A DNA stretch of 64,000 nucleotides from Gammaproteobacteria bacterium (GTDB taxonomy: Bacteria; Pseudomonadota; Gammaproteobacteria; HK1), in contig OZ241901.1 of the NCBI GenBank assembly GCA_965202895.1, forward strand, positions 3,850,770 through 3,914,769, written 5' to 3'. Under the pieces are notes generated by a model. That model saw nothing but the letters and a program-made list of their open reading frames with translations, was not told the DNA's origin and did no database searches. Positions 1,119 through 39,084 of this stretch are shown one piece after another; within the stretch, counting starts at the first letter, position 1, and each line of letters opens with the position of its first letter. The position numbers were made by a program, and so were the translations under genes.

Positions 1119-1679
1119 GTGGAGGGTGCAGGAGGAACCGCGACACCGGACGCCGCATCCGGGCCGTCGGTCAAGGGGCTTCACCACGCGGCCTTTCGCT
1201 GCCGCGATTCCGAGGAGACCCGCCGGTTCTACGAGGACTTCCTCGGGCTCCCGCTCGTGGAGGCGTTCGAGATCCGGGAGACGATGACGGGCCGGGCGAC
1301 CAGGGTGCTCCATACCTTCTTCGAGATGGGCGACGGGTCGTGCATGGCGTTCTTCGAGGCGCCCGGCCGGCCGTTCGAGTTCAAGGCCCAGCACGATTTC
1401 GACCTTCACATCGCGCTCGAGGTGGACGCTGCCGGGCTCGAGGCCAGGTTCGAGCAGGGGAGGGCGCTCGGAATCGAGACCCGCGGCATCGCGGACCACG
1501 GGTTCATCCGGTCCATCTACTTCCGCGACCCGAACGGGTACGTCGTGGAGCTGTCCGCCAAGAAGGCGGACCCGGCGCCCCCTGGTACGGGGGACCGTAC
1601 CCGCGCCGCCCGCGATGCACTCGACGAGTGGCAGAGGTCCAAGCCGGACGCCGCCCGCCCGGACGAGACCGGCCCATGA
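1119..1679 (+). CDS. VOC family (glyoxalase/bleomycin-resistance/dioxygenase fold) protein
   Basis: This is the C-terminal part of ORF 168..1679: VKGLHHAAFRCRDSEETRRFYEDFLGLPLVE...IRSIYFRDPNGYVVELS. An in-frame GTG at 1119 lies 8 nt after GGAGG (1106-1110). Upstream of that the ORF is antisense to the esterase. Confidence 0.8.
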   Translation: MEGAGGTATPDAASGPSVKGLHHAAFRCRDSEETRRFYEDFLGLPLVEAFEIRETMTGRATRVLHTFFEMGDGSCMAFFEAPGRPFEFKAQHDFDLHIALEVDAAGLEARFEQGRALGIETRGIADHGFIRSIYFRDPNGYVVELSAKKADPAPPGTGDRTRAARDALDEWQRSKPDAARPDETGP

Positions 1680-3528: not shown

Positions 3529-3604
3529 ACGCGCGGGATCGTAAGGGCGCGCGGCGGCCGGGGTCAATGGCCGGCGCCCCGTCGCCGGCGCCCCGTCGCG
3601 GGAT

Positions 3605-3847
3605 CGTTTCACCCCGACCGATTCGCGGCCAAGTGCCAATCAATGCCCACCGCTCCTCCTGGGAACGCTTGTGTCCCGCCCGCAAATGGGATGGCAAGAC
3701 CACTGCGGACCGATGCGGGCGGGACACAAGCGTTCCCAGGACGCCCGCATCCGTGGAAGGCGTCGTTCCCAGGACCTCCACCGCCCCGATCCGACCGAAC
3801 CGGGTTCGCCCGCGCGAACCGATCCCGCAGCGTGAACCGGCCCTGCC
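3605..3847 (+). repeat. type-2 composite palindromic (REP/BIME-like) element
   Basis: Left arm: gtttcaccccgaccgattcgcggcc...caatgcccaccgc. Central long hairpin: tgggaacgcttgtgtcccgcccgca...tgcgggcgggacacaagcgttccca. Right arm: ...gaaccgggttcgcccgcgcgaaccgatcccgcagcgtgaacc. Homologous copies lie at 33335, 42717 and 56895. Confidence 0.7.
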
Positions 3848-5126: not shown

Positions 5127-7178
5127 ATGGAGCACGGGGACGGAAACGGAAGCGCCCGGGGCGGCCGCCGCGACCGCTTCGAGCTCGAAGCGGGCTTCCG
5201 GCCCTCCGGCGACCAGGGGCCGGCCGCCGCCGCCCTCGTGGACGGGCTCGGGAACGGGCTCGCCCACCAGACCCTGCTGGGGGTGACCGGGTCCGGAAAG
5301 ACCTTCACCATCGCCAACGTCATCCGCTCCATCCAGCGGCCGACCCTGGTGCTCGCGCCCAACAAGACCCTCGCCGCCCAGCTCTACGGGGAGATGCGCG
5401 AGTTCTTTCCGCGCAACGCGGTCGAGTACTTCGTCTCCTACTACGACTACTACCAGCCCGAAGCGTACATCCCCTCGACCGACACCTACATCGAGAAGGA
5501 CGCCTCGATCAACGAGCACGTGGAGCAGATGCGCCTCTCCGCCACGAAGGCGCTCCTCGAGCGCGCGGACACGATCATCGTCGCCACCGTCTCGGCGATC
5601 TACGGCCTCGGCGACCCCGAACGCTTCCATGCCATGGTGCTCCACCTGGTGCGGGGAGGGCGGATCGACCAGCGCGAGCTGCTGCGCCGCCTCGCCGAGC
5701 TCCAGTACACGCGCACTTCCCTCGAGCTGCGCCGCGGCAGCTACCGGGTGCGCGGCGACGTCATCGACGTCTACCCCGCCGAGTCGGAGCGCGAGGCGGT
5801 GCGGATCGAGCTCTTCGACGACGAGATCGAGGCGCTCTCGCGCTTCGACCCCCTGACCGGCGAGGTGTCCGCGACCATCCCGCGGTACACGATCTACCCC
5901 AAGAACCACTACGTGACCCCGCGCGACACGGTCGTCGACGCGGTCGACGCGATCCGCGAGGAGCTGAGGGGGCGGCTGCACGAGCTGCGGGCGGGGCAGA
6001 AGCTGGTGGAGGCGCAGCGTCTCGAGCAGCGCACCCGCTTCGACCTCGAGATGCTCCAGGAGATCGGCCACTGCAAGGGGATCGAGAACTACTCGCGCTA
6101 CCTCTCCGGGAGGGCTCCGGGCGAGCCGCCGCCCACCCTGTTCGACTACCTCCCGGCAGGGGCGCTGCTCGTCATCGACGAGAGCCACGTCACCGTGCCC
6201 CAGCTCGGCGCGATGTACCGCGGGGACCGCTCGCGCAAGGAGACCCTGGTGCGGTACGGGTTCCGCCTGCCGTCGGCGCTCGACAACCGGCCGCTGCGCT
6301 TCGACGAGCTCGAACGCATCTCGCCCCAGACGGTGTACGTGTCGGCCACCCCGGGTTCCTACGAGCGGGAGCGTTCCGGCGACGTGGTGGAGCAGCTCGT
6401 GCGGCCGACGGGGCTCGTGGACCCGGAGGTCGAGATACGCCCCGCGATCACCCAGGTCGACGACGTGCTGGGGGAGATCAACCGCCGCGCCGGGGCGGGG
6501 GAGCGGGTGCTCGTGACCGTGCTCACCAAGCGGATGGCCGAGGACCTGACCGAGTACCTCGCCGAGCACCAGGTGCGGGTGCGCTACCTCCACTCCGACA
6601 TCGATACGATCGAGCGGGTCGAGATCATCCGGGACCTTCGCCTCGGCGAGTTCGACGTCCTCGTCGGCATCAACCTGCTCCGGGAAGGGCTCGACATGCC
6701 GGAGGTCTCCCTCGTCGCGATCCTCGATGCCGACAAGGAGGGCTTCCTCCGCTCCGAGCGCTCGCTCATCCAGACCATCGGGCGGGCGGCGCGCAACATC
6801 AACGGTACGGCCATCCTGTACGCCGATGCGCCGACCGACTCGATGAAGCGGGCGATCCGGGAGACCGACCGGCGCCGTGCGCGCCAGGTCGACTACAACC
6901 GGGAGCACGGGGTCACGCCGCGCGGGATCCGGAAGGCGGTGATGGACGTCATGGAGGGAGCGCGGCAGGGGCCGGCCGCGAGCCCGCGGAAGTTCGTCGA
7001 AGGGGCGAACGCCTTCATCCGGGACGCCGCCCTCGGGCGCGAAGACCTCGACGCGCGCATCGCCGACCTCGAGCGCCGGATGTTCAAGCACGCCGATGAT
7101 CTCGAATTCGAGGAGGCGGCCCGGATCCGGGACCGTATCCAGCAGCTTCAGGCGGCGGGGCTCGGGCTCGCGAGCTGA
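5127..7178 (+). CDS. uvrB: excinuclease ABC subunit B
   Basis: GDQGPA...[26 protein letters not shown], the helicase motifs, and a C-terminal UVR domain ([14 protein letters not shown]). ATG 5127 is in frame within ORF 3567..7178. Confidence 0.95.
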
Positions 7179-7452: not shown

Positions 7453-8693
7453 CCGCTCCGAATACACTGTTGCCGCGGCACTTGGCGCCGGTCGTCCGAT
7501 CGGCGTTGCAGGATACGCCGGTCGTCTGCGTGCTCGGGCCGCGCCAGAGCGGCAAGACGACCCTGGTGCGGAGCCTGGCCCCGGAGAGGGCCTTCGTCAG
7601 CCTGGACGAGCCGGACTACCTGTACGCTGCCGCCATCGATCCGGCAGGTTTCATCGCAAGCCTGCCGCAGGAGGTGACCCTCGACGAAGTGCAGCGGGCG
7701 CCCGGATTGCTGCCCGCCATCAAGCTGGCAGTGGACCGCAACCGCCGGCCCGCCCGCTTTCTGCTGACGGGTTCGGCCAATCTCCTGCTGCTGCCCAAGG
7801 TCACCGAATCCCTTGCCGGGCGTATGGAGATCGCCCAACTGCACCCGCTGACGGAGGCGGAGAAGGCCCGCCGTCCGGGCCGCTTCGTCCAGGCCCTGCT
7901 GGAGGGGGCCCTCGCGCCCTCGATCGACCCGCCGCCCGCGGAAGCGCCGCCATTGCCGGAACGGCTCGTGGCCGGCGGCTATCCCGAGCCGCTGACGCGG
8001 ACGCCGGCGCGGGCCCGGCAATGGCGCCGGCAGTATCTGCGCAGCGTGATCGAGCGGGACGTGAGGGACGTGGCGCGGGTCAAGGACGCCGACGACCTGG
8101 CGCGGCTGCTGGAGCTCCTCGCCCTGCGCGGCGCGCATCTGCTCAACGTCAGCCGCCTGGCTGGCGGGCTCGGCCTGCGCCGGGAGACGGTGGAACGCTA
8201 TCTCTCGGTGCTCGAGCGGCTGTTCCTGCTGCGCCGGCTGCGGCCCTGGCACGGCAACGCCGCCAAGCGCCTCGTCAAGTCCCCCAAGGCGCATCTGCTG
8301 GACAGCGGCCTCGCCGCCACCCTGGCCGATCTGACGGAGCGGGACTGGCTCCGCCAGCGGCAGCGAATGGGGCGCCTGCTGGAGTCCTTCGTGGTCCAGC
8401 AACTCGTCGCGCAGGCCTCGTGGACGGACCCCGATCTGCGGTTCTGGCACTACCGGGACAAGGATCAGGCAGAGGTGGACGTGGTGATGACCCGCGGCCG
8501 CAGTGTCTGGGGCGTGGAGATCAAGGCGGCCCGCTCCCTGGCCGGCGGTGACGGACGCGGCCTCGCCCGGCTCGCCGCCATCTGCGGTGCGGACTTCCGG
8601 CAAGGCGTGCTGTTCCATACCGGAACGGATCTGCTGCCGATGGCCGACGAGCGTATGCTCGCGGCGCCGCTCTCGGCGTTGTGGGAGTGGTAG
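7449..8693 (+). CDS. AAA family ATPase with DUF4143-type C-terminal domain
   Basis: MAAPNTLLPRHL...VLGPRQSGKTTL (Walker A)...FLLTGSANL...HLLDSGL...YRDKDQAEVDVV. ATG 7449 is in frame in ORF 7179..8693. Confidence 0.85.
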   Translation: MAAPNTLLPRHLAPVVRSALQDTPVVCVLGPRQSGKTTLVRSLAPERAFVSLDEPDYLYAAAIDPAGFIASLPQEVTLDEVQRAPGLLPAIKLAVDRNRRPARFLLTGSANLLLLPKVTESLAGRMEIAQLHPLTEAEKARRPGRFVQALLEGALAPSIDPPPAEAPPLPERLVAGGYPEPLTRTPARARQWRRQYLRSVIERDVRDVARVKDADDLARLLELLALRGAHLLNVSRLAGGLGLRRETVERYLSVLERLFLLRRLRPWHGNAAKRLVKSPKAHLLDSGLAATLADLTERDWLRQRQRMGRLLESFVVQQLVAQASWTDPDLRFWHYRDKDQAEVDVVMTRGRSVWGVEIKAARSLAGGDGRGLARLAAICGADFRQGVLFHTGTDLLPMADERMLAAPLSALWEW

Positions 8694-8742
8694 CCGCCCG
8701 GGACCTTCTTCCAGGCCATGTACTCGCCGATCCGGACCGGAC

Positions 8743-8785
8743 CAGGGCCGTTTCACGCTCCGGAATCGGTTCGCGCGGACTGGAC
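8743..8785 (-). repeat. fragment (one arm) of the type-2 repeat
   Basis: ccgtttcacgctccggaatcggttcgcgcgg matches the gtttcacgc(t/c)gcggaatcggttcgcggg arm of the other type-2 copies. Confidence 0.4.
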
Positions 8786-9119: not shown

Positions 9120-9656
9120 ATGCGCCACTTCAACACCACCGGCCCGGTCAAACCCGACAAGCACTACTGCATCCCGCCGCTCGCCCGTCCGGATCCGGAC
9201 GAGGTCCTCCGGCTGGTAGACGGCGAGAAGTACTTCGTGCTGCACGCTCCCCGGCAGACGGGCAAGACCTCCGCTCTCCCGGCGCTGTGCGACCTGCTCA
9301 ACGGGTAAGGCTACGCCTGCGTGTACACCACCGTCGAGACCGCACGTACGGCCCGCGAAGACGTGGAACAGGCAATGCGGACGGTGCTCCCCCGACTGGG
9401 ATCGGATGCGTGGTCGGCGTTGGGTGACGATTTTCTGGCCAGGGAGTGGTCCGGCATTCTGGCCGGGTTCGGTCCGAACGGGGCGCTGGGCGAGGCGCCG
9501 AGGCGCTGGGCGGAGGCGTCGCCGAAGCCGCTGGTGCTGCTCATCGACGAGATCGACACGCTCCAGGGCGACCCGCTGCTCTTGGCGCTCCAGCAGCTAC
9601 GCGCGGGCTACCCCATGCGCCCGGACGGCTTTCCGTACACCGGCGACGTCCCTTGA
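9120..9656 (+). pseudogene. AAA-ATPase-like protein, interrupted by an in-frame TAA and 3'-truncated
   Basis: MRHFNTTGPVKPDKHYCIPPL...YFVLHAPRQTGKTSAL...LLNG is followed by TAA (9306-9308). The same frame then continues GYACVYTTVETAR...LVLLIDEIDTL...RAGYPMRPDGFP and ends abruptly at 9656, just before the autotransporter. Confidence 0.7.
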
Positions 9657-9711
9657 CGCCGTCCGGTTTCGATTTCCAGGGCTGCATATCTTCGATTCGA
9701 TGGAGGTTTCG

Positions 9712-12700
9712 ATGGCCATGCCGAAGCGTATCCCGACCCTCGCCGGCGTCCTCGCCACCGCCCTGTTTCTCGCACCGGGCGGCGTGTGGGCGCAGCCCAG
9801 GGGGCGCGTCATGAGCGTCCGGGCGCGGGCCGCCGCGCGGCGCTTCGCCTTGGCGACGCTCCTCGCGCTCCCCGGCGCGGGGGAGGCGCAGGCCGCGGCG
9901 GTGTGCAGCGATACCCCGGGGCCGAACGACAGGGTCTATTGCACGCGCGCCTTCGGTACCGACATCGACATCGACCTCGACCTCACGAACCGGGCCATCG
10001 CGACGTCGGGAGTCTACGAAAACGGCTTCTATGCCGTTCAACGAGGAAGCGGCGCGATATCCATCGGCACGACGGGCGGCTCCATCGTGACGACGGGCAC
10101 AAGAAACTCCAGCGGCATCGCCGCGTGGACCGCGAATGCCGCGAACGAGGCGGTGCTCGCTATCGGCATGACGCGGGGCTCCGTCAATACATCGGGCTCG
10201 AACAGCCACGGCATCGATGGCGTTCACACAGGCGCGGGCCGAATCGACATCGACATGACGAGAGCCTCCATCTCGACGGAGGGCTCGCGAGCCCACGGCA
10301 TCTTCGGCTATCACCGGGGCGCGGGCGGAGTCGACATCGACATGAGGGGCGGCTCCGTCATGGCGATCGGCGAAGGGGCCCACGGCGTTTACGGCCTTAA
10401 TTACTCCGGCACGGGCGGAATCGACATCGACGTGACGGGCGGCTCCATCGCGACGACGGGCGCAAGCTCCAGGGGTATCACCGCGTGGATCGCGAATGCC
10501 GCGAACGAGGCGGCGATCGCTATCGGCATGACGCGGGGCTCCGTCGATACATCGGGCTCGCGCGGCCACGGCATCTATGGCGTTCACGCAGGCGCGGGCA
10601 GAATCGCCATCGACATGACGAGCGGCTCGATCTCCACGACGGGTGGGCGCGCCTACGGCATCCACGGCTATCACTCGGGCGCGGGCGGAGTCGACATCGC
10701 CATGAGGGGCGGCTCCGTCATGACGACGGGCGAAAGGGCCCACGGCGTTTACGGCCTCAATTACTCCGGCGCGGCGGGCGGAATCGACATCGACGTGACG
10801 GGCGGCTCCGTCATGGCGACGGGCGAGAGGGCCCACGGCGTCTACGGCGTTCATGCGGGCGCGGGCGGAATCGACATCGACATGACGGGCGGAACCGTCA
10901 CGGCGGTGGGCCAAAGCGCCTACGGCATCCAGGGCTTTATCCACAATGCCGCGAACGAGGCGGCGATCGACATCGACGTGAAGGGCGGAACCGTCGTGGG
11001 GGAGGGTCTCTTCGGTTACGGCGCACACGGAGCTCACGACGGTCTCGGTTCCGCCTCGTTGACGACGGGCGCGGAGGCCAGGGTCAAGGCGCCTTTCTCC
11101 ATCGGCGTGGTCGGCCGGCTGGCGAACGCCGCGAACGCGGCGGGGCGGCTCGTCATCGCGCACGGGGGCGCGGTGGAGGCGCGGAACATCGGCCTTCAGG
11201 CGTGGGCCACCCGGTCGAGCGGCCACACATTCGGCGACGGCGCGCAGACGGCGGACGGCGCGGCCCGGACCGAACCGATGATCGCCGTCGCCTCGAGCGG
11301 AACGGTCACGGTCGGCGCCTCGGTGACGGACGCCTTCGTCAGGGACAGGATCGCGGGCGCCGACGAGACGTTGTCGGCCGCCGAGCGCGCGGTCCTCGAC
11401 GCCGTCGCGGCGAGGGATTCGGACGCGCTGGACACGGCGCTCGCGGCGCTTCCCGCCGCCTACGACGCCGCCTGGAAAGCGGAGGCGCGGAATCTTCTGG
11501 GGAAGCTCGCGGCCGAGCCGAGCGCCGCCGTCGCGGCATACCGGGCGGCCGACGAGATCCTGGGCCTTTCCCGCGCCGGCGTCCGCGCCGCGGCGTTGTC
11601 CCACCCCAGGATCGCCTCCTTCGTCCGTCAGGGCGACCGCGACCCGGCGATCCTGGCCACCGCGGCGGAGGATCGAACGCCGCAGCAGAGGGCGGCGCTG
11701 GCGGAGCAGGAGATGCTCTCGGCCGCCGAGCGGACGGTGCTGGAAGCCGTGCTGACGGGCGGCGATCCGACGGCGGCTCTGGCCGCCCTTCCCGCCGCCT
11801 ATACGGACGACTGGAAGGACGGGGTCCGGCAGCGCGCGGCGAGCTACAACGATGGCGGCATCCGGGTGGACGTGACGGGAGGCTCGATCGCCGCCGAAGG
11901 GAACGGCGTGGAGGCGTTCTACGCCGTTCCGCATGACCGCAACGGCGCCATCGCGGTCGCGGTGGCCGAGGGCGCGCGCGTCACGGGCAGCCGGAACGGT
12001 GTCCACGTCCGCGGCGCGGGCGCCGGAGAAGGGAGTTTCCGAGCCCAGAGCGTGACGGTGAACGGCGCGGTGACGGGCGGAACCGGCGCGGGCGTGCACA
12101 TGGCCGGCGGCGGGCGGCTCACCGTCGGCAAGACCGGGCGTGTCGGCGCGGCTTCGGGCGTGGGCGTCCTCGCCGACGGACCGGGCGACCTCCACGCCAC
12201 GGTGGCCGGGACGGTCGACGGCGACATCCGGAGCACGGGCGCGGGGACGCTGACGCTGGCGGTATCGGAAGGCGGCGTCGTCACGGGAACGGTGCACGAC
12301 CCGGTCGGCCCGCTGACGGTGGCCGGCAGTATCGGGCGGCTGCTCTACACCAACGGCGCCACGGTCACCGTGGCCGGCACCGGCAAGCTCACGGGCGTCG
12401 AGGTCGACGGCCGGACCGAGGCGCTACGCAGCGAGGCCGGCGACCTGAGCCTGACCGTGGCCGACATGGGCATGGTGACCGGCGACGTCCGGGCGCGCGG
12501 CGGCCGGCTCACCCTGGACTTGAAGGCAGGCGGGACGATCGCGGGCACGGTGCACGATCCGGCCGGCCCGCTGACGGTGGCGGGCAGTATCGGGCGGCTG
12601 CTCTACGCCAACGGCGCCACGGTGACGGTGGCCCGGACCGGCAGGCTCACCGGCGTCGAGGTCGAGGGCCGGAGAGAGGCGTTGCGCAGCGAGGCCGGCG

Positions 12701-14154
12701 ATCTGGACCTCACCGTGGCGGGCATGGTCACCGGGGACGTGTTCGGCCTGGGGGCGGGCGAGCACACGGTCACCGTCTCCAACGGCGGCACGGTGACGGG
12801 CACCGTGCGTCTGGCCGCGAGCACGGTAACGGTGCACGGCAGGGCCGGGCGGGTGCGCTTCGACGACGGCGGCACGGTGACGGTGGGCAGTACCGGCTGG
12901 ATCACGGGCATCGAGGACGACGGCCGGACCGAGGCCATCAAGAACGAGGCCGGGGACCTGGTGGTGAGCGTGGCCGGCAGGGTCGGAGGAGACATCGATG
13001 TAGCCGGTGCGGGCAGTGAGTTGCGGGTCGACGGCACGGTCGAGGGGCGCGTCCGGTTCCGTCAGGGCGGGATGGTGACGGTCGGAGAGAACGGCAAGAT
13101 TGAAGGAAGGGTATCGAGGGACGAGGGCGAGCTCGTGGCGGTGATCGAACGAAAGCCGGAGGAGACGACGAGGGCCGCGGCCGTGGGGCGGGCGTTCCCG
13201 GGCGGTATCGACCTGCCACACGATGAAATCCTGCTGAAGCCCGAGCTCGCGGACCATGAGCCGCGTATGCGGGTGTACGAGGCGTTGCCCTCGGTGCTGC
13301 TGGGGCTGAACCGCCTGCCGGAGTTCCGGGACCGGATGGCCGCGCCGCGGACGGCGAACGGAGCGGGCTGGGCTCGCGTGGAGGCGTTCCGCGGCAAGTG
13401 GAAGGCGGACGAGTCGACGACGGCGGGCTTGGAGTACGACCACCGCCGCCACGGCCTGAAGGCGGGGATGGACGCCGCGGTGGGCGAACGCGGCCTGCTC
13501 GGCGTCTCCTTCCATCACCGGCGGGGGACGGCGGAGGTGCCGAACGGGGGTGAGATCGATCTGTCCGGCAACGGCGTGGGGGTGTCCGGCGCCGCTTGGC
13601 TCGGGGACGACGTCTACGTGGACGTGCAGGCCGAGGCGACGTGGTACGAGGCCGACCTGAGCGCCGCGCGCCACGGGGTGCTGAAGACGGACGTGCCGGG
13701 CCGCGGCCATGCGTTGGGGGTGGAAGCGGGCCGGCGGGTCACCCTGGAGCGCCTGCCGGCGGGGATGGTGCTCACGCCGCGGGCCGGGCTGGTGCATTCG
13801 AAGGTGTCGGTGGGCGGTTTCACCGACGCGGTGGGCGCGCGCGTGTCGGTGGAGGACGGGCGCAGCCTGAAGGGCCGTGCGGGCGTGGCGGTGGAGATGG
13901 AGCCGGGCGGAGCTTCGCGGAGCCGGGTGTTCGGCTCGGTGGACGTGGAGCGCGAGTTCTCGCGGGATACGAAGGTGGTGGTGTCGGGGACGGAGTTGCG
14001 GTCGGAGGCCGAGGCGACGTGGCTGCGCCTGGGTCTGAACGGGGTCCATGCCTGGGACGACGGGCGGTACGCGGTGCAGGGCGGGATGAGCTACGCGACG
14101 AGCGGCGGCGGCCACGAGCTCGGCGGCGGATTGCACCTGACGGTGCGGTTCTGA
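9712..14154 (+). CDS. autotransporter outer-membrane protein with a repeat-rich passenger domain
   Basis: The N-terminus is signal-like (MAMPKRIPTLAGVLATALFLAPGGVWA). The passenger carries about 8 copies of the unit HGI.G.H.GAG.IDIDM..GS. The C-terminus is a beta-barrel translocator ending ...GGGLHLTVRF. Alternative starts are 9700, 9718 and 9814. Confidence 0.85.
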   Translation: MAMPKRIPTLAGVLATALFLAPGGVWAQPRGRVMSVRARAAARRFALATLLALPGAGEAQAAAVCSDTPGPNDRVYCTRAFGTDIDIDLDLTNRAIATSGVYENGFYAVQRGSGAISIGTTGGSIVTTGTRNSSGIAAWTANAANEAVLAIGMTRGSVNTSGSNSHGIDGVHTGAGRIDIDMTRASISTEGSRAHGIFGYHRGAGGVDIDMRGGSVMAIGEGAHGVYGLNYSGTGGIDIDVTGGSIATTGASSRGITAWIANAANEAAIAIGMTRGSVDTSGSRGHGIYGVHAGAGRIAIDMTSGSISTTGGRAYGIHGYHSGAGGVDIAMRGGSVMTTGERAHGVYGLNYSGAAGGIDIDVTGGSVMATGERAHGVYGVHAGAGGIDIDMTGGTVTAVGQSAYGIQGFIHNAANEAAIDIDVKGGTVVGEGLFGYGAHGAHDGLGSASLTTGAEARVKAPFSIGVVGRLANAANAAGRLVIAHGGAVEARNIGLQAWATRSSGHTFGDGAQTADGAARTEPMIAVASSGTVTVGASVTDAFVRDRIAGADETLSAAERAVLDAVAARDSDALDTALAALPAAYDAAWKAEARNLLGKLAAEPSAAVAAYRAADEILGLSRAGVRAAALSHPRIASFVRQGDRDPAILATAAEDRTPQQRAALAEQEMLSAAERTVLEAVLTGGDPTAALAALPAAYTDDWKDGVRQRAASYNDGGIRVDVTGGSIAAEGNGVEAFYAVPHDRNGAIAVAVAEGARVTGSRNGVHVRGAGAGEGSFRAQSVTVNGAVTGGTGAGVHMAGGGRLTVGKTGRVGAASGVGVLADGPGDLHATVAGTVDGDIRSTGAGTLTLAVSEGGVVTGTVHDPVGPLTVAGSIGRLLYTNGATVTVAGTGKLTGVEVDGRTEALRSEAGDLSLTVADMGMVTGDVRARGGRLTLDLKAGGTIAGTVHDPAGPLTVAGSIGRLLYANGATVTVARTGRLTGVEVEGRREALRSEAGDLDLTVAGMVTGDVFGLGAGEHTVTVSNGGTVTGTVRLAASTVTVHGRAGRVRFDDGGTVTVGSTGWITGIEDDGRTEAIKNEAGDLVVSVAGRVGGDIDVAGAGSELRVDGTVEGRVRFRQGGMVTVGENGKIEGRVSRDEGELVAVIERKPEETTRAAAVGRAFPGGIDLPHDEILLKPELADHEPRMRVYEALPSVLLGLNRLPEFRDRMAAPRTANGAGWARVEAFRGKWKADESTTAGLEYDHRRHGLKAGMDAAVGERGLLGVSFHHRRGTAEVPNGGEIDLSGNGVGVSGAAWLGDDVYVDVQAEATWYEADLSAARHGVLKTDVPGRGHALGVEAGRRVTLERLPAGMVLTPRAGLVHSKVSVGGFTDAVGARVSVEDGRSLKGRAGVAVEMEPGGASRSRVFGSVDVEREFSRDTKVVVSGTELRSEAEATWLRLGLNGVHAWDDGRYAVQGGMSYATSGGGHELGGGLHLTVRF

Positions 14155-18287: not shown

Positions 18288-18431
18288 GAGTCGGTCCTCG
18301 TTACCCGGAGGCGCACGTTCGACAGGGAGGCCGGCGGCGGGCCGCCCGACCGGTGCACAGCCTACCGAAGCGCGGGCGGGATCGCAACGCGCCGGCTCAC
18401 GCTCGCAGGCTCACGTCTCGTTGGACGGAGG

Positions 18432-18736
18432 CCCGGGCGCTGTTCGTAACCTCTTGATATAGCGGGTGGAGATCGGGGTTCGAGATATCTTTTACCCCCA
18501 CGGAGACGGCGTTCTTCCGTGGTTTGGGTTCGGTTCGAGGGGGTTGCTGGCGGATTTCACCCACGGAGCCACTTGCGCGGGCACGGCGTCCTGGGAACGC
18601 TTGTGTCCCGCCCGCAAATGGGACGGCGAGGCCGCCGCCGATCAATGCGGGCGGGACGCCCGCGTTCCCAGGACGCCATGCCCAAGAGCGTTCGCGAGAG
18701 GCATGCCCGACGAAAACCCCACAGCGCACATGCCTC
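18432..18736 (+). repeat. type-1 MITE-like repeat, copy A
   Basis: cccgggcgctgttcgtaacctcttgatatagcggg...long hairpin ggcgtcctgggaacgc...gcgttcccaggacgcc...cacagcgcacatgcctc. It has an imperfect terminal inverted repeat (G-GCGCTGT) and is about 80-90% similar by eye to copies B-F. Confidence 0.75.
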
Positions 18737-18849
18737 GACGAGGCTCGGGGTTGAGTATCCCGGATCGCGTGAGTATGATTCGCCGCCAAGCGGCGCGGAG
18801 CACCGTGCGGGGCACGGTCGGCACGAATCGCGGCAGTGGAGGAGCGGGC

Positions 18850-24633: not shown

Positions 24634-24879
24634 GACACCGGCTCCGAATCCGTCCCCCGATCATCCAGCCGCCTGCGAGACGCGGCGGGCGCCGGAGCCG
24701 ATCCGGGCCGTCCGCGTGCCGGGGCGGATCGGCAAGGCTCCGGGCGCCGAAGAGGCGCGTCGGCGTGGAGGGGTTTCCCCGGCACATCGTCGTCGGCGGC
24801 GCCGGGAACGAGCTACCCACCGGCCGAGGCGGAAGTCTCCGGGACCCCCCGGCCGGCGTGCGCGGACGGCCCTCTGCAA

Positions 24880-25064
24880 GATCGGGATGGCGGGTGGTCG
24901 ACGGGTCGGGGGAGGGTCGAGATGCCGCCGGTCCGGGACGCTACCCTCGGAAAGTCCGCGTGGCGGTGAACCGCCCTGCCATCTCTGGGACCGCATCTAC
25001 CCAGCTCCCGGCGACGGGCGCATCGTAGCATGAGTGACCGGGTGTGCGCCCGCGCGAAGTGCGG
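24880..25064 (+). repeat. left copy of a ~185-bp direct repeat (relic of the gp7-like gene 3' end plus downstream sequence)
   Basis: 24919-25064 is near-identical to 61763-61905 (a few substitutions and a 3-bp indel). Weaker similarity extends about 40 bp upstream. Confidence 0.75.
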
Positions 25065-25118
25065 CCGGCCGCTCCCGGCCGGAAGGCCCCCGGCCCGGCG
25101 CGCGCGGGCGGCCCCGGC

Positions 25119-27545: not shown

Positions 27546-27792
27546 GTTCGGTCTCCGTTGGGGGTTCAGCTCCGGTCGCCGGCGCGGTCCCGGCTCCGGG
27601 CCGGAAACCGATCCCGCAGCGCGAGATGAATCGGCACGTAGAGGGCCAGCGCCGCCAGCGACCAGACCGCGTGCCCGGTGAGCTGGTAGACGGCGTAGGC
27701 GATCAGGGCGCCGATCGCTCCATGGACGACGTCGCGCATGTCCGTATTCTGCCCGATCGGGGCGGCGGTCGTCACCGGCCGGCCCGCAGGCT

Positions 27793-28077
27793 GGCATGTG
27801 CGCTGTAGGGATTTTCGCCAAACACGCCTCTCGCGAACGTTTTTGGGCACGGCGTCCTGGGAACGCGGGCGTCCCGCCCGCAAATGGGATGGCGAGGCCG
27901 CCGCCGAGCAATGCGGGCGGGACACAAGCGTTCCCAGGACGCCGTGCCCGCGCAAGAGGCTCCGTGGGGTGAAATCCGCCAGCAACCCTCTCGAACCGAC
28001 CTCGAACCACGGAAAAACGCCGTCTCCGTGGGGGTAAAAGATATCTCGACCTGCCTATATATCAATAACCTACGAAC
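27793..28077 (-). repeat. type-1 MITE-like repeat, copy B (inverted orientation)
   Basis: The reverse complement aligns end to end with copies A and C-F. Confidence 0.75.
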
Positions 28078-28431
28078 AGCGCCCGGGGCTCCAACACCGG
28101 CCGGCCCACGGATTGCCGGCCCGAGGACCGGCCGGAGCGAATGGTCCGTCCGGTTCGGCAGCCCGCGATCCGTCCGGTCCGAGTGAGGGCCGGGGAGGCG
28201 CCCTGGAACCCGGACGCGAGCGCTCGACGGATGAGGTCCGTGGAAGCCCGCGAAGGCCGGCCGCCGCGGCGGTCGCCCGGGGGAGGAGGCGGTTCGGTTC
28301 GTGCGAGCGCACGGTCCGCCCCCGCCGAGCTCGTGCCCGGGGCAGCGGGTAGCCGCGGCTCCGGCGCCGGACCGCGGCGAGGACGGGCGGAGGGGGAGGG
28401 CGAGGGGGCGGACTTCTCGGCGACCGGACGG

Positions 28432-29133: not shown

Positions 29134-29420
29134 CAGCCCTTCTTCGAGGTCCGGGACGCTGCGGCGATCATAACGGCCTCCGCGTCCGCGTCCGCCATGC
29201 TTCGCCGTGGCGGCTTCTCGTTCGCTGCCGCCGTCCCGCTCCCGCCGCCGGACCGGGAAGGCGCCCCGACCCCCCGGAGCGAGTGCAACGGCACGAATTC
29301 CGTCCGCGTCCCGACAGGAATCCCGTCCACGGTGAAACGACGGATCGATGCGCTACGCGACCAGGCGCCGACACGGACCGACGGGAATTCCGGAGGACGT
29401 CCCACAGGCTGTGGAGTGAG

Positions 29421-29678
29421 CCCCGCGCGCTGTTCGTAACCTCCTGATATAGAGGGTGCAGAGAGGGGGTCGAGATATTCCTTGCCCCACGGGGACGGGC
29501 TGACTCCACGGTTTCGGGGCGGTTCGTGGGTCTGGTTGGTGGATTTCACCTCATGGAGCCGCTTGCGCGGGCACGGCGTCCTGGGAACGCGGGCGGGACA
29601 CAAGCGTTCCCAGGACGCCGTGCCCAAGAACGTTCGCGAGAGGCGTGTTTGGCGAAAACCCCACCGCGCACATGCCTC
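29421..29678 (+). repeat. type-1 MITE-like repeat, copy C (central hairpin shortened)
   Basis: It shares the termini and flanking modules of the other copies. The inner loop of the hairpin is deleted. Confidence 0.7.
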
Positions 29679-29817
29679 GAAGTGGTCCGAGGGGGGGCGC
29701 GCGGACCGAGGTGCTACAGTGGCGGACCGCCGACCGGGCCGAACCCACTCGACCACCGCGGCCCAACGCCCGGAATTTCCGACCCCCCGGCGTACCAAGG
29801 GCCGACGGCAGCAGGCA

Positions 29818-32800
29818 ATGAACGGCAACCCTCCGCTATTCGAAGGGCAGGTTCTCACCGGCGAGCTCTTCGACGAGCCCATGCGGATCGAGACCATCCA
29901 TGCGAACGGCCCCGGCGCATGGGATGCCGGCCTGGTCGGGGTCCGGTCGGAACGGTTCCGTCGGGTCACGCTGACGGCCGAGGACGTCGCGAGCCTCACC
30001 GTCACCGACCGGACGCTCTCCTACGACGGCGATGCAAGGCTGCTCCGCCTCGGGCTCCAGGCGTACTCCCTCGGCATCGCCTACGAGTTCGACCCCTTCT
30101 TCGGCCTCTCCATCTCCCGCGTGGACCCTCTTCCCCACCAGCTCGAAGCGGTCTACGAACACCTCCTCAAGCTCCCCGCCGTGCGCTTCCTCCTCGCCGA
30201 CGACGCCGGCGCCGGCAAGACCGTGATGGCGGGGCTTCTCGTCCGGGAGCTCAAGCTCCGGGGCCTCGCCGAACGGATCCTCGTCGTGTGCCCCGCGAAC
30301 CTCGCCTTCCAGTGGCAGCGCGAGCTCAAGGAGAAGTTCGACGAGAAGTTCCTCGTCTTCAAGGGCGGCGACGTCAGGGAACAGTTCGGCGTCAACCAGT
30401 GGCTCGAGCAGAAGCAGATCGTCACGTCGCTCGACCTTGCCAAACGCGGCGACGTCCTTCCGGGACTGCGGCAAGCGCACTGGGATCTGGTGATCGTGGA
30501 CGAGGCGCACCGGATGTCGGCGCGCGACGAAGCCCACAAGAGCCAGCGCTACCGGCTGGGCGAGCTGCTGCGCGACCGCGCCGATCACATCCTGCTGCTG
30601 ACCGCGACGCCCCACAAGGGCGATCCGCAGAACTTCACCCTGTTCCTCCAGCTCCTCGACCGCGATGCGTACGCGGACGTGCGCTCCATCCGGAAGGCGA
30701 TGGAGCGCCAGCGGGCGCCTTTCTACCTCCGCCGGACCAAGGAGGCGATGATCCATTTCCCGGAGCGCCGGGCGGACGGCCGTTGGGCGGCCCGACCCGT
30801 GTTCACGAAGCGGATCCCGCGCACCGCGAGCTTCGCCATCGACGGCGCGGAGCTCGACCTCTACCGGGAGGTGACGCAATTCGTGAAGCGACAGAGCCGG
30901 CGCGCCGCGGAGCGGCAGGACGACCCCAGGGCGCGGGCGGTCGGGTTCCTGATGTCCCTCTACCAGCGCCGCCTCGCCTCCAGCACCTGCGCCATGCGCC
31001 GCTCGCTCGAGAAACGGGCCGAACGGCTCGAAGACGGCCTCGCCCGAGCCGAGGACCTGGTGCGCACGGCTCCGCCCGGACTGCCCGATCCGGAAGACCT
31101 CGACGAGATGGAGGACGCCGAACGCGAGAGGATCGAACGGCAGCTCGATGCCGTCACCCTCGCCGGCAATGCGGCGCAGGTGCGCGAGGAGGTAGCCGAG
31201 CTCCGCCAGCTTGCCGCGAAGGCGAAGGAAGTCGAGGGCTCGGACGGCGAGGAGAAGCTCGGCCGGCTCGAGAAGATCATGCGCGAAGAAGGCTTCTTCG
31301 ACCGCCCCGATCAACGCCTCCTCCTCTTCACCGAGTTCACCGACACCCTCCGCTACCTGATGGGCCGGTTGGAGAGGTGGGGCTTCCGCGTCGGGTGCAT
31401 CCACGGCGGGATGAAACCCGGATCTCGCGACGAGCCGGGCACCCGGCTGTACGCGGAGCAGCGGTTCCGGGAAGGGGCCATCCAGGTGCTCATCGCCACC
31501 GAGGCGGCGGGCGAAGGGATCAACCTCCAGTGCTGCCACGTCCTGTTCAACTACGACATCCCCTGGAACCCCAACCGGCTCGAGCAGCGCATGGGGCGCA
31601 TCCACCGGTACGGCCAGCGGCAGGACTGCCTCATCTTCAACTTCGTCGCCGCCAACACGATCGAGGGGCGGGTGCTCGACCGCCTGCTCGCGAAGTTGCA
31701 GGAGATCCGGGACGCCCTCGACGACGACGCGGTCTTCAACGTGGTGGGCGAGGTGCTGCCCGGCGCCCAGGTGGAACGCGTGCTGCGGGACTACTACGCG
31801 GGCAGGCTGGGCGATGCCGACCTGGAAGATCGGCTCCTGAAGGACGTGGACGAAGCGCATTTCCGCTCGATCTGCCGGACGGCGCTGGAAGGTCTCGCGT
31901 CGAAGAAGCTCGACCTCGAGATGCTCGTGGAACGCCGGGCGCGAGCCCAGGAGCGGCGGGTCGTGCCGGAGACCATCGCGCGGTTCATGAGGGAGAGCGC
32001 CCGGGACGCGGGGCTTCCACTCGAACCGGTGGGGTCCCTGCCCCATGCCTTCGAGCCGGGACGGACCCCGGCGGCGCTGAAGGCGTTCGAACGGGAGGCA
32101 AGCGGGAAGACGGCGAGCCTCGCGGACCGCTATCCGCGTCTGTCGACGGACCGGGAGACGGCGGAGGAGCACGACCTCGAATGGGTGACCCCGGGACACC
32201 CGTTGTTCGAGGCCCTGCGCCGATGCAGCCTCGCGCGGGGGCGGGACGCCTTCTCCAGGGGCGCCTGCTTCCATTCCCTGGAGCACGAGGCGCCAGCCCG
32301 GCTCGATTTCTACCGGGCGCGGTTCGTGGACGGTCTCGGGCGCACCATCCACGAACGCCTCTTCACCGTGGAGCTCGTGCAGGGGAGGGCGCCGGCCCTG
32401 CGAGCCCCTGACGTCCTCGGGGACCTGAGCCCCGCGGCGACGCCCCCCGGCGTGCCGCCGCCTTCCATCGCTTCCTCGCCGGAGGAGACCCCGTGGCTCA
32501 ACGAGAATGCGTTGATGCGGCTGCTCCGCGAGGTGCGGAGGGAACGGGCCGCGGAGGTCGAGCGCATCGCCGGGCACGTCGATCTCTCGTTGACCGAGGT
32601 GTTGCAACGCACCGATGAGGAGATCGGGCGGGCGAGCGTGGACGTGGAGAAGGGAGTCGCCGGAGCGGAGGGCCGGCTCGTGCAGGCCGAGGCCCGGCAC
32701 TCCGAGGTTCTGGCGCGGCGCGAGAGGCGCCGCAAGGAGCTCGGGCAACAGCGCGCGGTCACCCTGCAGGGCGTCGAACGGATGGCGAGCGCCTTGGTGC

Positions 32801-33291
32801 TGCCCCACCCCGAACGCGGGTCCGAGGACGTGCGGCGCCTGAAGCCGAACCCCGAGACCGAGACGACGGCGATGGAGGTCGTCATGGAGTACGAGAGGGA
32901 GCAAGGACGGCAGGTCTACGACGTCCACAGGGAGAACCTCGGCTACGACGTGACCAGCCTCGATCTCGCGTCGGGCGAGCTGCGGCTGATCGAGGTGAAG
33001 GGGCTGGCCGCCCCGGCCGGGAGCATCCTGCTGACGCCGAACGAGCGCCGGGTGGCCGAGGATCGGCGCGACTGCTACTGGCTCTACGTGGTGACGGGCT
33101 GTGCGGCGGAGCCCGAGCTGCAGGAACCGATCAGGGACCCCGCCCGGTTCCCGTGGCATGAGGTCAGGAAGGTGCAGCACTACCGGCTGGACGTGGATGC
33201 GATGCGCGGGGGTCGGCCCGAAGCCGGCGCCGGCCGGGGGGCGACCGATCGATCCCGCCGCGCCGGAACCACCGGAAGGGGCGCGCCATGA
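29818..33291 (+). CDS. SNF2-family helicase with C-terminal DUF3883 (PD-(D/E)xK-like) domain
   Basis: LPHQLEAV...LADDAGAGKT (motif I), VIVDEAHR (motif II), LLLTATPHKG, then the helicase C-terminal region (LIATEAAGEGINLQ...WNPNRLEQRMGRIHRYGQ). The C-terminus is GYDVTSLDL...LRLIEVKG...LTPNERRVAE...YWLYVV. ATG 29818 is in frame in ORF 29482..33291. Confidence 0.9.
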   Translation: MNGNPPLFEGQVLTGELFDEPMRIETIHANGPGAWDAGLVGVRSERFRRVTLTAEDVASLTVTDRTLSYDGDARLLRLGLQAYSLGIAYEFDPFFGLSISRVDPLPHQLEAVYEHLLKLPAVRFLLADDAGAGKTVMAGLLVRELKLRGLAERILVVCPANLAFQWQRELKEKFDEKFLVFKGGDVREQFGVNQWLEQKQIVTSLDLAKRGDVLPGLRQAHWDLVIVDEAHRMSARDEAHKSQRYRLGELLRDRADHILLLTATPHKGDPQNFTLFLQLLDRDAYADVRSIRKAMERQRAPFYLRRTKEAMIHFPERRADGRWAARPVFTKRIPRTASFAIDGAELDLYREVTQFVKRQSRRAAERQDDPRARAVGFLMSLYQRRLASSTCAMRRSLEKRAERLEDGLARAEDLVRTAPPGLPDPEDLDEMEDAERERIERQLDAVTLAGNAAQVREEVAELRQLAAKAKEVEGSDGEEKLGRLEKIMREEGFFDRPDQRLLLFTEFTDTLRYLMGRLERWGFRVGCIHGGMKPGSRDEPGTRLYAEQRFREGAIQVLIATEAAGEGINLQCCHVLFNYDIPWNPNRLEQRMGRIHRYGQRQDCLIFNFVAANTIEGRVLDRLLAKLQEIRDALDDDAVFNVVGEVLPGAQVERVLRDYYAGRLGDADLEDRLLKDVDEAHFRSICRTALEGLASKKLDLEMLVERRARAQERRVVPETIARFMRESARDAGLPLEPVGSLPHAFEPGRTPAALKAFEREASGKTASLADRYPRLSTDRETAEEHDLEWVTPGHPLFEALRRCSLARGRDAFSRGACFHSLEHEAPARLDFYRARFVDGLGRTIHERLFTVELVQGRAPALRAPDVLGDLSPAATPPGVPPPSIASSPEETPWLNENALMRLLREVRRERAAEVERIAGHVDLSLTEVLQRTDEEIGRASVDVEKGVAGAEGRLVQAEARHSEVLARRERRRKELGQQRAVTLQGVERMASALVLPHPERGSEDVRRLKPNPETETTAMEVVMEYEREQGRQVYDVHRENLGYDVTSLDLASGELRLIEVKGLAAPAGSILLTPNERRVAEDRRDCYWLYVVTGCAAEPELQEPIRDPARFPWHEVRKVQHYRLDVDAMRGGRPEAGAGRGATDRSRRAGTTGRGAP

Positions 33292-33334
33292 ACCAAGCGC
33301 CTGAGCCCGCACGTGTGCGTTCCATCGCCAGGAT

Positions 33335-33590
33335 CGTTTCACGCTGCGGAATCGGTTCGCGGGGGTGAACCCGGTTCGGTCGAATCGGAGCGGCGAAGGT
33401 CCGGGGAACGGCGCCTCCCACGGATGCGGGCGTCCTCCGAACGCTTGTGTCCCGCCCGCAAATGGGGCGGCAAGACCGCCGCCGATCGATGCGGGCGAGA
33501 CACAAGCGTCCGGAGGACGCGCCGTTCCCAGGAAGAGCGGTGGGTATCGATGCCTGGCCGCGAGTCGGTCGGCGTGAAAGGGCCTTGGTT
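33335..33590 (-). repeat. type-2 composite palindromic element (inverted)
   Basis: cgtttcacgctgcggaatcggttcgcggggg...central hairpin cgaacgcttgtgtcccgcccgca...tgcgggcgagacacaagcgtccg...gtcggcgtgaaaggg. Confidence 0.7.
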
Positions 33591-33672
33591 CCATCGCGCG
33601 ACGGGGCGCCTCTGCGGTGCGGTGTAAGGCGTATGATGGCGGGGGTCCGTTTCCCACCGGGACACACTCGCC

Positions 33673-34419
33673 ATGAGCGCCCCCGCCACCATGCACACCG
33701 GCCCCCTCGGCTCCACCATCCACGTCCTCCGCGCCGACGCCGACACCATCGCCGAGCTCGCCGCCATCGACTGGAACCGCTGCTTCCGCCGGGTCTGCCT
33801 CGATCCGGTGCGCGGGATCATCACCCTGATGGCGCCTTCGTTCCGCCACGAAGACCTGTCTGAAATCATCGGCAACGTCGTGGACGATGTGGGGGACGCC
33901 ATCACCAGCGCCACGAAGGGGATCCGCAGCACCCGGCTTCGCGGGCGGGGCGAGCCGCCCGGCACGGGGATGGAGCCCGACTGCGCGTTCTACGTCGGCG
34001 AGCGCGCCAGAGGCTTTTACGTGGCCCGCGCCGAAGGGGAGGCGGCAGCCGACGCCTTCGTCGAGCGCACTGCGCCCGACTTGGTGGTGGAGGTCGAGAT
34101 CACGCACGCCGACGAGGGAAAGGCCGAGCGCTACGGCCAGATGGGGGTGCGGGAGCTGTGGCGGCTGCATGGGCGCAGAGGGACGAGGGAGCTGCGGGCG
34201 GACTTTCTGGCCCTGGGTCCCGGGAGGGCGCCGCGCCGGCTCGGCGCCTCGGTGGTGCTGGAAGGGCTGACCCCGGATGACGTCTGCGAGGCGGTGGAAG
34301 AGGTCGGGGCCGGCGAGACCCGCCGCCAACGGGCGGAGGCGGTGGCCCGCATCGTGCGCCGTCGGCGGCAGGCGAGCGCGCGGGTGCGGGAGGAGGCGGC
34401 GGCGTACTCCGTCCACTGA
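33673..34419 (+). CDS. Uma2 (DUF820) family putative PD-(D/E)xK endonuclease, paralog 1
   Basis: ...ITLMAPSFRHEDL..., GMEPDCAFYVG, APDLVVEVEITHADEGKAERYGQMGVRELWRLH. The pattern is the Uma2 signature (P..H / E-PD / D-x-V-E-V / K..Y...GV.EYW). Confidence 0.8.
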   Translation: MSAPATMHTGPLGSTIHVLRADADTIAELAAIDWNRCFRRVCLDPVRGIITLMAPSFRHEDLSEIIGNVVDDVGDAITSATKGIRSTRLRGRGEPPGTGMEPDCAFYVGERARGFYVARAEGEAAADAFVERTAPDLVVEVEITHADEGKAERYGQMGVRELWRLHGRRGTRELRADFLALGPGRAPRRLGASVVLEGLTPDDVCEAVEEVGAGETRRQRAEAVARIVRRRRQASARVREEAAAYSVH

Positions 34420-34485
34420 GGCGAGCGCGAGCCGCCGATCCTGCGAAGAAGACGGCGCCGGAAGGGGCGCGCCACGAAGAAAACG

Positions 34486-34803
34486 CCCCGGGCGCTGTTT
34501 GCAACCTCTTGATATAGCGGGTGGAGGTCGGGGGTCGAGATATTTTTTACCCTACGGGGACGGGCTGACTCCACGGTTTCGGGGCGGTTCGTGGGTCTGG
34601 TTAGCGGATTTCACCTCACGGAGCCGCTTGCGCGGGCACGGCGTCCTGGGAACGCTTGTGTCCCGCCCGCATTTTCTTCCGGGCGTATCGCTCTCGTGCG
34701 GGCGGGACACCCGCGTCTGGAAGACGCGCCGTTCCCAGGACGCCGTGCCCAAGAACGTTCGCGAGAGGCGTGTTTGGCGAAAGCCCCACAGCGCACATGC
34801 CTC
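34486..34803 (+). repeat. type-1 MITE-like repeat, copy D
   Basis: Full-length copy located in the spacer between Uma2 paralogs 1 and 2. Confidence 0.75.
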
Positions 34804-34879
34804 ATCGCACGGCGGGGCCTACGCGGTGCGGTGGAAGGCGTATGATGGGGGGTCCGCTTCCCACCGGGACACACTCGCC

Positions 34880-36527: not shown

Positions 36528-36593
36528 AACGAGCGCGACCCGCCGGTCATGCGAAGAAGATGGCTTTGGAAGGGGCGCGCCATGAAGAAGGAG

Positions 36594-39079: not shown

Positions 39080-39084
39080 TTCCG

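Follow-up and report, generated by a model that had tools for sequence, protein, structure and literature searches.

A mosaic intergenic repeat with a REPIN-type core whose right end stands in register with predicted promoter boxes of downstream genes

A stretch of 64,000 nucleotides from a 70% GC bacterial genome, referred to here as the window and with most of its genes on the + strand, carries six copies of a repeat named element A. Element A is a non-coding mosaic of three modules, a left arm (A-L), a palindrome (H) and a right arm (A-R). At seven independent junctions, five in the window and two in contigs of related strains, the right end of the element is followed in the same register, 36-41 nt downstream in the window, by a hexamer that resembles the -10 box of sigma-70 promoters. 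We infer from these predicted boxes that A-R ends at about position -50 of sigma-70-type promoters. The best explanation, to which we give slightly less than even confidence, is that A is a mobile mosaic which, by target choice at integration, comes to lie in a single orientation at about -50 of promoters. Element A would land at the upstream edge of a promoter through an orientation-specific choice of target, and homologous recombination together with palindrome deletion at H would afterwards reshuffle or remove modules.

The preliminary description of this DNA had listed six full copies and one solo 3' end, and both stand. When the six copies were aligned and turned into an nhmmer profile, the 64-kb window gave six full elements and no more, with E-values from 1e-80 to 1e-103. 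Their coordinates agree with the earlier ones within ~5 nt, except for the far (5') end of the minus-strand copy, placed here at 28091, 14 nt further out than the 28077 given before. Alignment of the six regions with MAFFT delimits a common block of ~300 nt with sharp ends and a mean column identity of 74%. The copies are 262-322 nt long and occupy five unlinked sites; a common coding frame is disfavoured by the indels between them, whose lengths are not divisible by three. Two copies lie in a 2108-bp segmental duplication that corresponds to repeat families D1-D3 and D13. In blastn the solo end is 91-100% identical to the final 33 nt of three copies, and the A-R profile finds it too. The distances from the 3' end of A to the genes downstream reported previously were reproduced for VOC, infC, the helicase, Uma2 and DUF499. 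The copies, with the neighbouring genes of the reference copy as assigned by Pfam, and their internal features are the following.

18428-18737, + strand: element A, reference copy (nhmmer E = 4e-98), between thrS (-) and infC (+); 112-113 nt from its 3' end to infC
~18428-18578, + strand: A-L of the reference copy, from the alignment
18579-18683, + strand: H of the reference copy, from the alignment
18684-18737, + strand: A-R of the reference copy, from the alignment
18447-18459, - strand: perfect match to the IHF consensus WATCAANNNNTTR, in A-L
27792-28091, - strand: element A, between a Crp-family gene (-) and a small-ORF/XDH operon (-); the gap of 53 nt hinges on a small putative ORF (27739->27563)
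29418-29679, + strand: element A without the loop and 5' arm of H; its neighbours are the Crp-family gene (-) and the hmaA helicase gene (+), with 138-139 nt to the helicase
34484-34804, + strand: element A inside the 2108-bp segmental duplication, between Uma2-1 and Uma2-2; 75-76 nt to Uma2
36591-36912, + strand: element A, duplicate of the 34484 event, between Uma2-3 and Uma2-4
34502-34514 and 36610-36622: perfect matches to WATCAANNNNTTR, in A-L
43075-43380, + strand: element A with GTCCCCC at both flanks, between an element B (after hmaB/DUF1156) and hmaC/DUF499; 132-133 nt to DUF499
1005-1040, + strand: solo A-R end (A-R profile match 1008-1039), upstream of a glyoxalase-family (VOC) gene; 78 nt to VOC

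The left arm, of ~160 nt, features a weak terminal inverted repeat, an IHF-consensus site and two AT boxes. Its outer sequence GAGCCCCGGGCGCTGT agrees with the reverse complement of the 3' end, GAGGCATGTGCGCTGT, at ~12 of 16 positions, weak for a transposase site; the terminal repeats G.GCGCTGT / ACAGCGC.C described before are thus present, with a core of 7-8 bp. The AT boxes TTGATATAG and GAGATATTTTTTAC are conserved, conspicuous against the 70% GC background, and spaced by 26 nt in every copy except 27792; the AT box of the preliminary description is invariant. A site for IHF is predicted by consensus match 20-32 nt from the A-L end; three copies match perfectly, and each of the remaining three has a single mismatch. 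The consensus occurs four times in the window, against 0.04 expected, and three of the four occurrences fall within A-L. The right arm, of ~60 nt, terminates with ACAGCGCACATGCCTC and is the best conserved of the modules. Both hairpins of the preliminary description were found in part of the copies. The short one (CCACGGA...TCCGTGG) pairs in four of them and is replaced by a non-pairing variant in 29418 and 34484; the hairpin of ~100 nt is present in five, copy 29418 having lost its 5' arm and loop. The element may also contain a nested inner stretch, bounded by CCCCACRG. Three other readings of these motifs were discarded: no tRNA or tmRNA is called inside any copy, which disposes of a tRNA-derived origin suggested by a GGTTCGA motif; copies also occur outside arrays, contrary to an integron attC-like cassette boundary; and the dyad symmetry of an FNR/CRP box is absent, by eye, from the AT box and the A-R end.

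Outside the window, profiles of A-L and A-R match five contigs only, all from close relatives (L001, L087, L209, L210 and L211). They gave no match in 80 ThrRS loci of the nearest GTDB genomes or in 120 JGI loci, nor in seven related loci (L082-L086, L208 and L212) that carry Uma2 cassettes 85-92% identical to those of the window. An eighth Uma2-cassette locus, L213, has a weak and diverged A-L-like pair only, which hints at more distant relatives of A. An exact 23-mer from the most conserved stretch of A had no match in one genome per GTDB species, a 21-mer from A-R had none in JGI metagenomes, and blastn of one copy against plasmids found none. The best identity of the host ThrRS is 70%, to MAGs of Azospirillaceae and Rhodospirillales, the nearest GTDB representatives found. 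In the collections searched, A-L and A-R were found only in what appears to be one narrow alphaproteobacterial lineage.

The palindrome H has a much wider distribution and is common in soil bacteria, in many of which it stands by itself. It is made of two inverted 26-nt arms, each with its own mini-hairpin GCGGGCG-TCC-CGCCCGC, and is predicted to fold as a hairpin of ~35 bp. The window has ten copies, and H is found alone, in A and in a second repeat, element B. The loci scanned for H yielded 129 non-overlapping matches, full or partial, and the arm pattern CCTGGGAACGCNNGNGTCCCGCCCGC was detected in at least 120 stretches of JGI metagenomes. There, H copies are intergenic hairpins of 70-90 nt, many of them directly after stop codons. 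In four of the 120 JGI loci listed (L117, L118, L145 and L107) H adjoins a Y1_Tnp/RayT gene, and L118 has an H copy on either side of it, at 6903-6972 and 7549-7631. The proteins encoded beside H keep the HUH motif NHVHV and are named in JGI/NCBI as RayT (in JGI 'REP element-mobilizing transposase RayT'), or REP-associated tyrosine transposase, a very large family (background on RAYTs in PMC5581495). H is therefore a REPIN-type element, with inverted REP-like units in many copies and, in metagenome loci, a RayT gene flanked by the same repeats. Of at least 7,982 RayT homologues, the best 120 include none from the source contig, and the 64-kb window has no transposase gene; H may be mobilised by a RayT in this genome.

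Element B has left and right arms of its own, with 17-nt terminal inverted repeats (CAGGnnCnTTTCAyGC), and shares H with element A. It makes target duplications of 8-10 bp, and the site upstream of Uma2-3 is the empty site for the B copy upstream of Uma2-1. Element B is a proper MITE and illustrates the classical form in this DNA. Its orientation is mixed, and B and H-only copies are found in convergent spacers and at gene 3' positions. The copies of B, with the H stretches that lie outside A, are the following.

3598-3846, + strand: element B; H at 3657-3745
33329-33587, - strand: element B; H at 33429-33533
42711-43059, + strand: element B; H at 42763-42974
~56880-57075, + strand: element B, 5'-truncated; H at 56899-56994
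8736-8778: solo end of element B

Contigs of related strains, found through exact-protein matching, reveal that the modules are exchanged between the two repeats. Besides A-L+H+A-R and B-L+H+B-R, the arrangements A-L+H+B-R (L087) and B-L+H+A-R (L209) are seen, as well as A-L+A-R without H (L209 and L210). At the Crp/helicase site of copy 29418, related strains have A copies with a partial H or none, as well as a full copy; the full copy is found in L209 and H-less ones in L087 and L210, while L208 has no A at the Crp site, where the surrounding sequence is diverged. At the site of copy 27792, L211 has an A copy and L209 a reverse-complemented element B, likewise in diverged surroundings. The H loop is found in both orientations within otherwise co-linear A copies, that of 27792 being inverted relative to 18428. 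Its presence alone, in B and in hybrids, together with these loop flips, identifies H as a separate unit. It acts as a recombination hub, and is prone to deletion as long palindromes are.

This mosaic build sets a limit to the MITE-like character proposed for A. The element is short, non-coding and dispersed, but its modules swap with those of B and it lacks a regular target-site duplication. Duplications of a fixed length were not found among the A copies. One copy (43075) has GTCCCCC on both sides, and another has a 13-nt direct repeat that is displaced by 3 and 6 nt relative to the element ends; the remaining copies showed nothing above control level. At the Uma2 site, A replaces 26-32 nt of the empty-site sequence. 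No clean empty site was found in L209 or L208, and the regions upstream of hmaC in relatives lacking A do not align.

The relation of A to its neighbours was assessed in the flank from the 3' end of the element to the next start codon, the Uma2 duplicate being counted once. A -10-like hexamer was defined as one with A at position 2, T at position 6 and at least 4 of 6 matches to TATAAT. The hexamers found at the junctions are the following.

18774-18779, + strand: TATGAT, infC junction, 37 nt past the A end; TTGAGT ahead with 17-nt spacing
27746-27751, - strand: CAGAAT, XDH junction, 41 nt past the A end
29715-29720, + strand: TACAGT, hmaA junction, 36 nt past the A end, with TGC in front; conserved in L087, L209 and L210
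34841-34846, + strand: TATGAT, Uma2 junction, 37-38 nt past the A end; the same box lies at 36950-36955 (Uma2-4)
43419-43424, + strand: CACAAT, hmaC junction, 39 nt past the A end; ATGACA ahead with 17-nt spacing
L001, outside the window: TATGCT, Uma2-313 junction, same register
L211, outside the window: TATCAT, PepN junction, same register, examined once the rule was already in place

Each of the five independent junctions of the window has exactly one such hexamer in the first 350 nt of its flank; a second one is present in a single flank, at +354 of the 378 nt of the XDH flank. No hexamer of this kind occurs within 240 nt outward of the A 5' ends. Hexamers satisfying the rule start at 0.22% of the positions of the window and at 0.52% of the intergenic ones. 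The coincidence of seven out of seven within one 5-nt window has p ~5e-10 after correction for the choice of window and p <1e-6 after a look-elsewhere correction, and p stays <1e-5 at a fourfold higher local hexamer frequency; these values cover junctions drawn from one small genomic neighbourhood, a few kilobases in extent, in a handful of related strains. Differences in the right flank of L001 may reflect a real rearrangement or an assembly chimera (3.3x coverage), and this contig was used as one extra junction only. The flanks have no similarity among them besides the hexamer. The distance from the box to the start codon is variable (76 nt for infC, 103 for hmaA, 39 for Uma2, 94 for hmaC and 12 for the small ORF), showing that the register is tied to the box and not to the gene start. 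At the XDH junction the ATG of the small ORF follows the hexamer by exactly 7 nt, making this ORF a candidate for a leaderless mRNA. A promoter scan of the 64 kb returned seven full sigma-70-like sites, two of them beginning 14 and 16 nt beyond A ends, and a good -35 sequence is present at just 3-4 of 7-8 junctions. The hexamers are probably working -10 boxes. Several observations count against the main reading, among them the small number of junctions, the scarcity of good -35 sequences, and the missing regular target duplication and clean empty site. The spread of 5-6 nt in the distances is loose for a molecular ruler, and the promoter at the Uma2 junction belongs to the Uma2 cassette, which keeps it also where A is missing.

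The register bears on the orientation of the copies, all seven of which had been reported to point to the downstream gene. This polarity is real, but the 7/7 count is weak as a statistic. Copies 34484 and 36591 belong to one segmental duplication and count as a single event, while 1005, 18428 and 29418 lie between divergent genes, where either orientation would face a gene start; three informative events are left. The polarity is borne out by the register kept at seven independent junctions. Of the options put forward to explain it, a polarity-dependent preference of insertion is viable and is the one preferred here, leaving target choice and selection as the two remaining readings.

The other options were that A carries an outward promoter or is a structured 5'-UTR or riboregulator of the downstream gene, both of which we now consider very improbable. 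A promoter was suggested by the AT boxes, so prominent in a 70% GC genome, and in copy 27792 a 10-bp deletion in A-L indeed brings them to TTGATA-16-TATCTT, directed at the downstream genes. In the five other copies the boxes are 26 nt apart, and the promoter scan detected no internal sigma-70-type promoter except in this deletion copy. The -10-like boxes are outside A, 36-41 nt downstream of it, too distant for a hybrid promoter of the kind formed at IS ends; since the -35 and -10 positions are both in the flank, such a hybrid does not apply. The strong hairpins of A favour a leader RNA. Rfam searches, at the gathering score on the window and with E <= 10 on one copy, returned only noise, however, and the predicted folding of A-L is no more stable than that of shuffled sequence (z = +0.84 and +0.11). 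The short hairpin is lost in variant copies and H is deleted or inverted in several while the rest of the element is kept. Covariation is almost absent, 3 of 84 predicted pairs being compensatory in an alignment of 7 sequences that gives low power. Should the hexamers be genuine -10 boxes, transcription starts downstream of A, and A does not belong to a leader.

Element A might alternatively be a portable upstream regulatory module that inserts about randomly and whose copies are kept by selection at about -50 to -60, where RNA polymerase would be acted on by the A-L arm bent by IHF, or by a protein that binds the conserved end of A-R. We regard this as possible but on balance unlikely. The fixed register and the orientation fit such a module, as do the high conservation of A-R, the solo A-R remnant kept at the usual distance from a weak box (CAGCAT), the B-L+H+A-R hybrid that retains A-R beside the promoter, and the IHF-consensus site in A-L. 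There is also a precedent in IS5 for orientation-specific upstream activation (PMC11894529). Target choice is favoured over selection because B and H copies survive at neutral sites, where no A junction is found. Moreover, the L087 hybrids have B-R in place of A-R with the Uma2 promoter unmoved, and Uma2-1 and Uma2-3 have the same TATGAT box upstream without A. The downstream genes (infC, XDH, defence genes and PepN) form no obvious regulon; a spread of 5-6 nt, half a helical turn, suits a phased activator poorly; and ~290 nt separate the promoter from the IHF site, which lies at the opposite end of the element. A more trivial explanation would be that A is ordinary intergenic filler of the REP/BIME type, its orientation and register arising from a small sample, from shared ancestry of the flanks or from the narrowness of the permissive space in short intergenic regions. 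Removal of duplicate and divergent contexts does leave just three orientation-informative junctions, the known junctions all come from one small genomic neighbourhood, and at the Uma2 promoter element B inserted within 7 nt of where A joins the flank, possibly the sign of a permissive hot spot. We nevertheless judge it improbable: the flanks are dissimilar apart from the hexamer, seven of seven in a 5-nt window is far above chance even at a local hexamer frequency of 2%, the PepN junction of L211 was predicted by the rule, and the divergent thrS-infC spacer offers a wide permissive space. Hardly any weight is given to a strand bias coupled to replication, in which a Y1/HUH single-strand transposase would insert in an orientation set by the fork, with genes co-oriented with replication. 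Insertion in one orientation relative to the replication fork is a property of IS608 and ISDra2. GC skew is positive across the window, indicating that the + strand is leading, 6 of 7 copies are on this strand, and the H core belongs to a RayT-associated family. However, the minus-strand copy 27792 lies among minus-strand genes and keeps the promoter register, and L211 has two A copies back to back, each facing outwards, one of them facing PepN in register (the contig ends inside the second). Element B, which shares H, is in mixed orientation, and a bias of this kind leaves the fixed distance to the -10-like box unexplained.

Placement by target choice, the preferred reading, could operate through recognition of the promoter itself, with A integrating ~50 nt upstream of the transcription start in one orientation by contact with the RNA polymerase holoenzyme or with DNA bent at the upstream edge. 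We put this specific mechanism forward with considerable reservation, and we know of no established bacterial precedent for orientation-specific promoter targeting. If true, A would be a bacterial counterpart of Ty3 and TRE5-A, a non-autonomous repeat marking the sigma-70 promoters of a genome. If the register extends genome-wide, the copies of A would naturally map the upstream edges of promoters in an uncultured alphaproteobacterium of 70% GC. Element A would then be either the first bacterial repeat to target promoters at a set distance and in a set orientation, or a mobile upstream module by which expression is rewired. In that case A may also affect expression of the split Hma defence operon, as two of the three Hma genes have a copy directly upstream. 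The case of H illustrates how the arms of two unrelated repeats can be shuffled through a REPIN-type palindrome that acts as the hub of recombination. It also calls for caution in repeat annotation, since one apparent MITE is a composite of modules with different distributions.

Several known systems share parts of this organization. H resembles the REP/REPIN-RAYT systems in being a doublet of inverted arms, highly repeated and intergenic, that adjoins Y1_Tnp in four metagenome loci. Element A is like BIMEs in combining a palindrome with alternative flanking motifs, one of which (A-L) has an IHF consensus; BIMEs of E. coli include the RIB/RIP type that bears an IHF site. Unlike BIME linkers, A-L and A-R are much longer, and the whole A combination disperses as a unit. 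REPs and BIMEs are mostly found at gene 3' ends and, to our knowledge, have no register with promoters. RIME and NIME, the intergenic mosaic repeats of Rhizobium and Neisseria (alpha- and beta-proteobacteria), are likewise built of palindromic units and variable modules, but they have no sequence relation to A and we know of no promoter register or orientation rule reported for them. The Correia elements (CREE) of Neisseria and other bacterial MITEs are, like A, short, non-coding and multi-copy; they have terminal inverted repeats and an IHF site, to which the weak inverted repeat and the predicted IHF site of A would correspond, and both CREE and element A lie beside genes with possible effects on expression. 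Correia elements have 26-bp inverted repeats, duplicate TA and carry promoter elements in their ends, whereas in A the inverted repeat is weak, duplications are irregular and the end is free of a promoter.

Among mobile elements that act on promoters, IS5 activates transcription at glpFK and flhDC from upstream positions in one orientation. Upstream of E. coli fucAO, IS5 activates in one orientation, with contributions of an IHF site and bent DNA (PMC11894529). The likeness to A lies in a mobile element positioned upstream of a promoter in one orientation with an IHF site, predicted in A, in the element. With IS5, each case is one selected insertion of an autonomous IS and the distance to the promoter differs from case to case, in contrast to a non-autonomous family at one distance, and the IHF-like site of A is at its far end. 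The closest analogues to promoter targeting are yeast Ty3 and Dictyostelium TRE5-A, which target Pol III promoters and insert at a fixed distance and orientation upstream of transcription units guided by the transcription machinery. They are eukaryotic retroelements with known integrases, and a contact of A with RNA polymerase would be an analogy only. Element A thus has a core of the REPIN/RAYT kind within a mosaic of the BIME/RIME type, to which the promoter register adds a new feature.

The Hma defence system called by PADLOC at positions 29818-46290 of the window is made up of three genes:

29818-33291, HmaA, SNF2/NOV_C helicase
39709-42708, HmaB, DUF1156 methylase
43513-46290, HmaC, DUF499 ATPase

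The Hma genes appear to have been pulled apart in this segment. Their spacers carry four Uma2 cassettes, two uncharacterised ORFs within a stretch of 62% GC (38117-39708), and the repeats A and B. The cassette, a DNA unit of ~840 bp composed of the Uma2 gene plus a -10 box and leader of its own, is a dispersed repeat in itself, found at 33588-37751 of the window and also in loci L082, L083, L086 and L208-L213. Its nucleotide identity is 85-92%, both between loci and across different genomes of 5-6 Mb. Homologues of the Uma2 protein number 1,827 at E <= 1e-10, the majority originating from ENA long-read metagenomes.

DUF1156 methylase reading frames of two JGI metagenome loci accommodate a RayT gene together with its H palindromes (the REPIN-type palindrome common to A and B), in frame and without stop codons:

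L117, 3901-6699, stretch with RayT and H inside the DUF1156 frame
L118, 6802-7698, stretch with RayT and H inside the DUF1156 frame

The two RayTs share just 57% identity, and several homologues bear the JGI name 'putative DNA methylase'.

A contig from a close relative (L001, 1-6285), compared with the window from 18744, has the order thrS-A-Uma2 (313 aa) in place of thrS-A-infC. The two strains are 99.8% identical outside element A. The A copy of the relative is a patchwork of other A copies; its arrangement reflects either a rearrangement at element A or an assembly chimera (3.3x coverage). A diverged head-to-head pair similar to A-L, the left module of A, is present in the Uma2 cassette locus L213 at 1549-1656 (-) and 1815-1894 (+), within a called 323-aa gene that has no Pfam match. 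This pair probably represents a remoter relative of A, carried by another organism of the same samples. At 36700-36900 of the window, and in the corresponding part of other A copies, the palindrome within A reaches ~25-30 nt past the H core on either side. The direct repeat CCCCAC(G/A)G borders this extended unit, which could be an older nested insertion.

A small 58-codon ORF (27563-27739, -) that precedes the XDH gene has its ATG 7 nt past a -10-like CAGAAT, a spacing that makes it a candidate leaderless mRNA. A fragment similar to B-R, the right arm of element B, overlaps this ORF at 27580-27635.

The window also features a 200-nt direct repeat of 92% identity (24875-25077 and 61718-61917) unrelated to A, B and H, and an autotransporter gene (9400-14154) with tandem coding repeats of 87 nt and about 255 nt. 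The 98-nt tRNA-Phe called by ARAGORN at 57745-57842 (-) is not reported there by Rfam; it is probably either a spurious prediction or a gene that has been disrupted.

Element B, which is a MITE in the proper sense, occupies these positions of the window:

3598-3846
8736-8778
33329-33587
42711-43059
about 56880-57075

It ends in inverted repeats of 17 nt, CAGGnnCnTTTCAyGC, and its target duplications are GTTCCATCGC, CCGGTGAC and CCCCG(T/C)CGC. Upstream of Uma2-3 an empty site for the element can be seen. In its ends and duplication length, element B may resemble the ISAs1 family.
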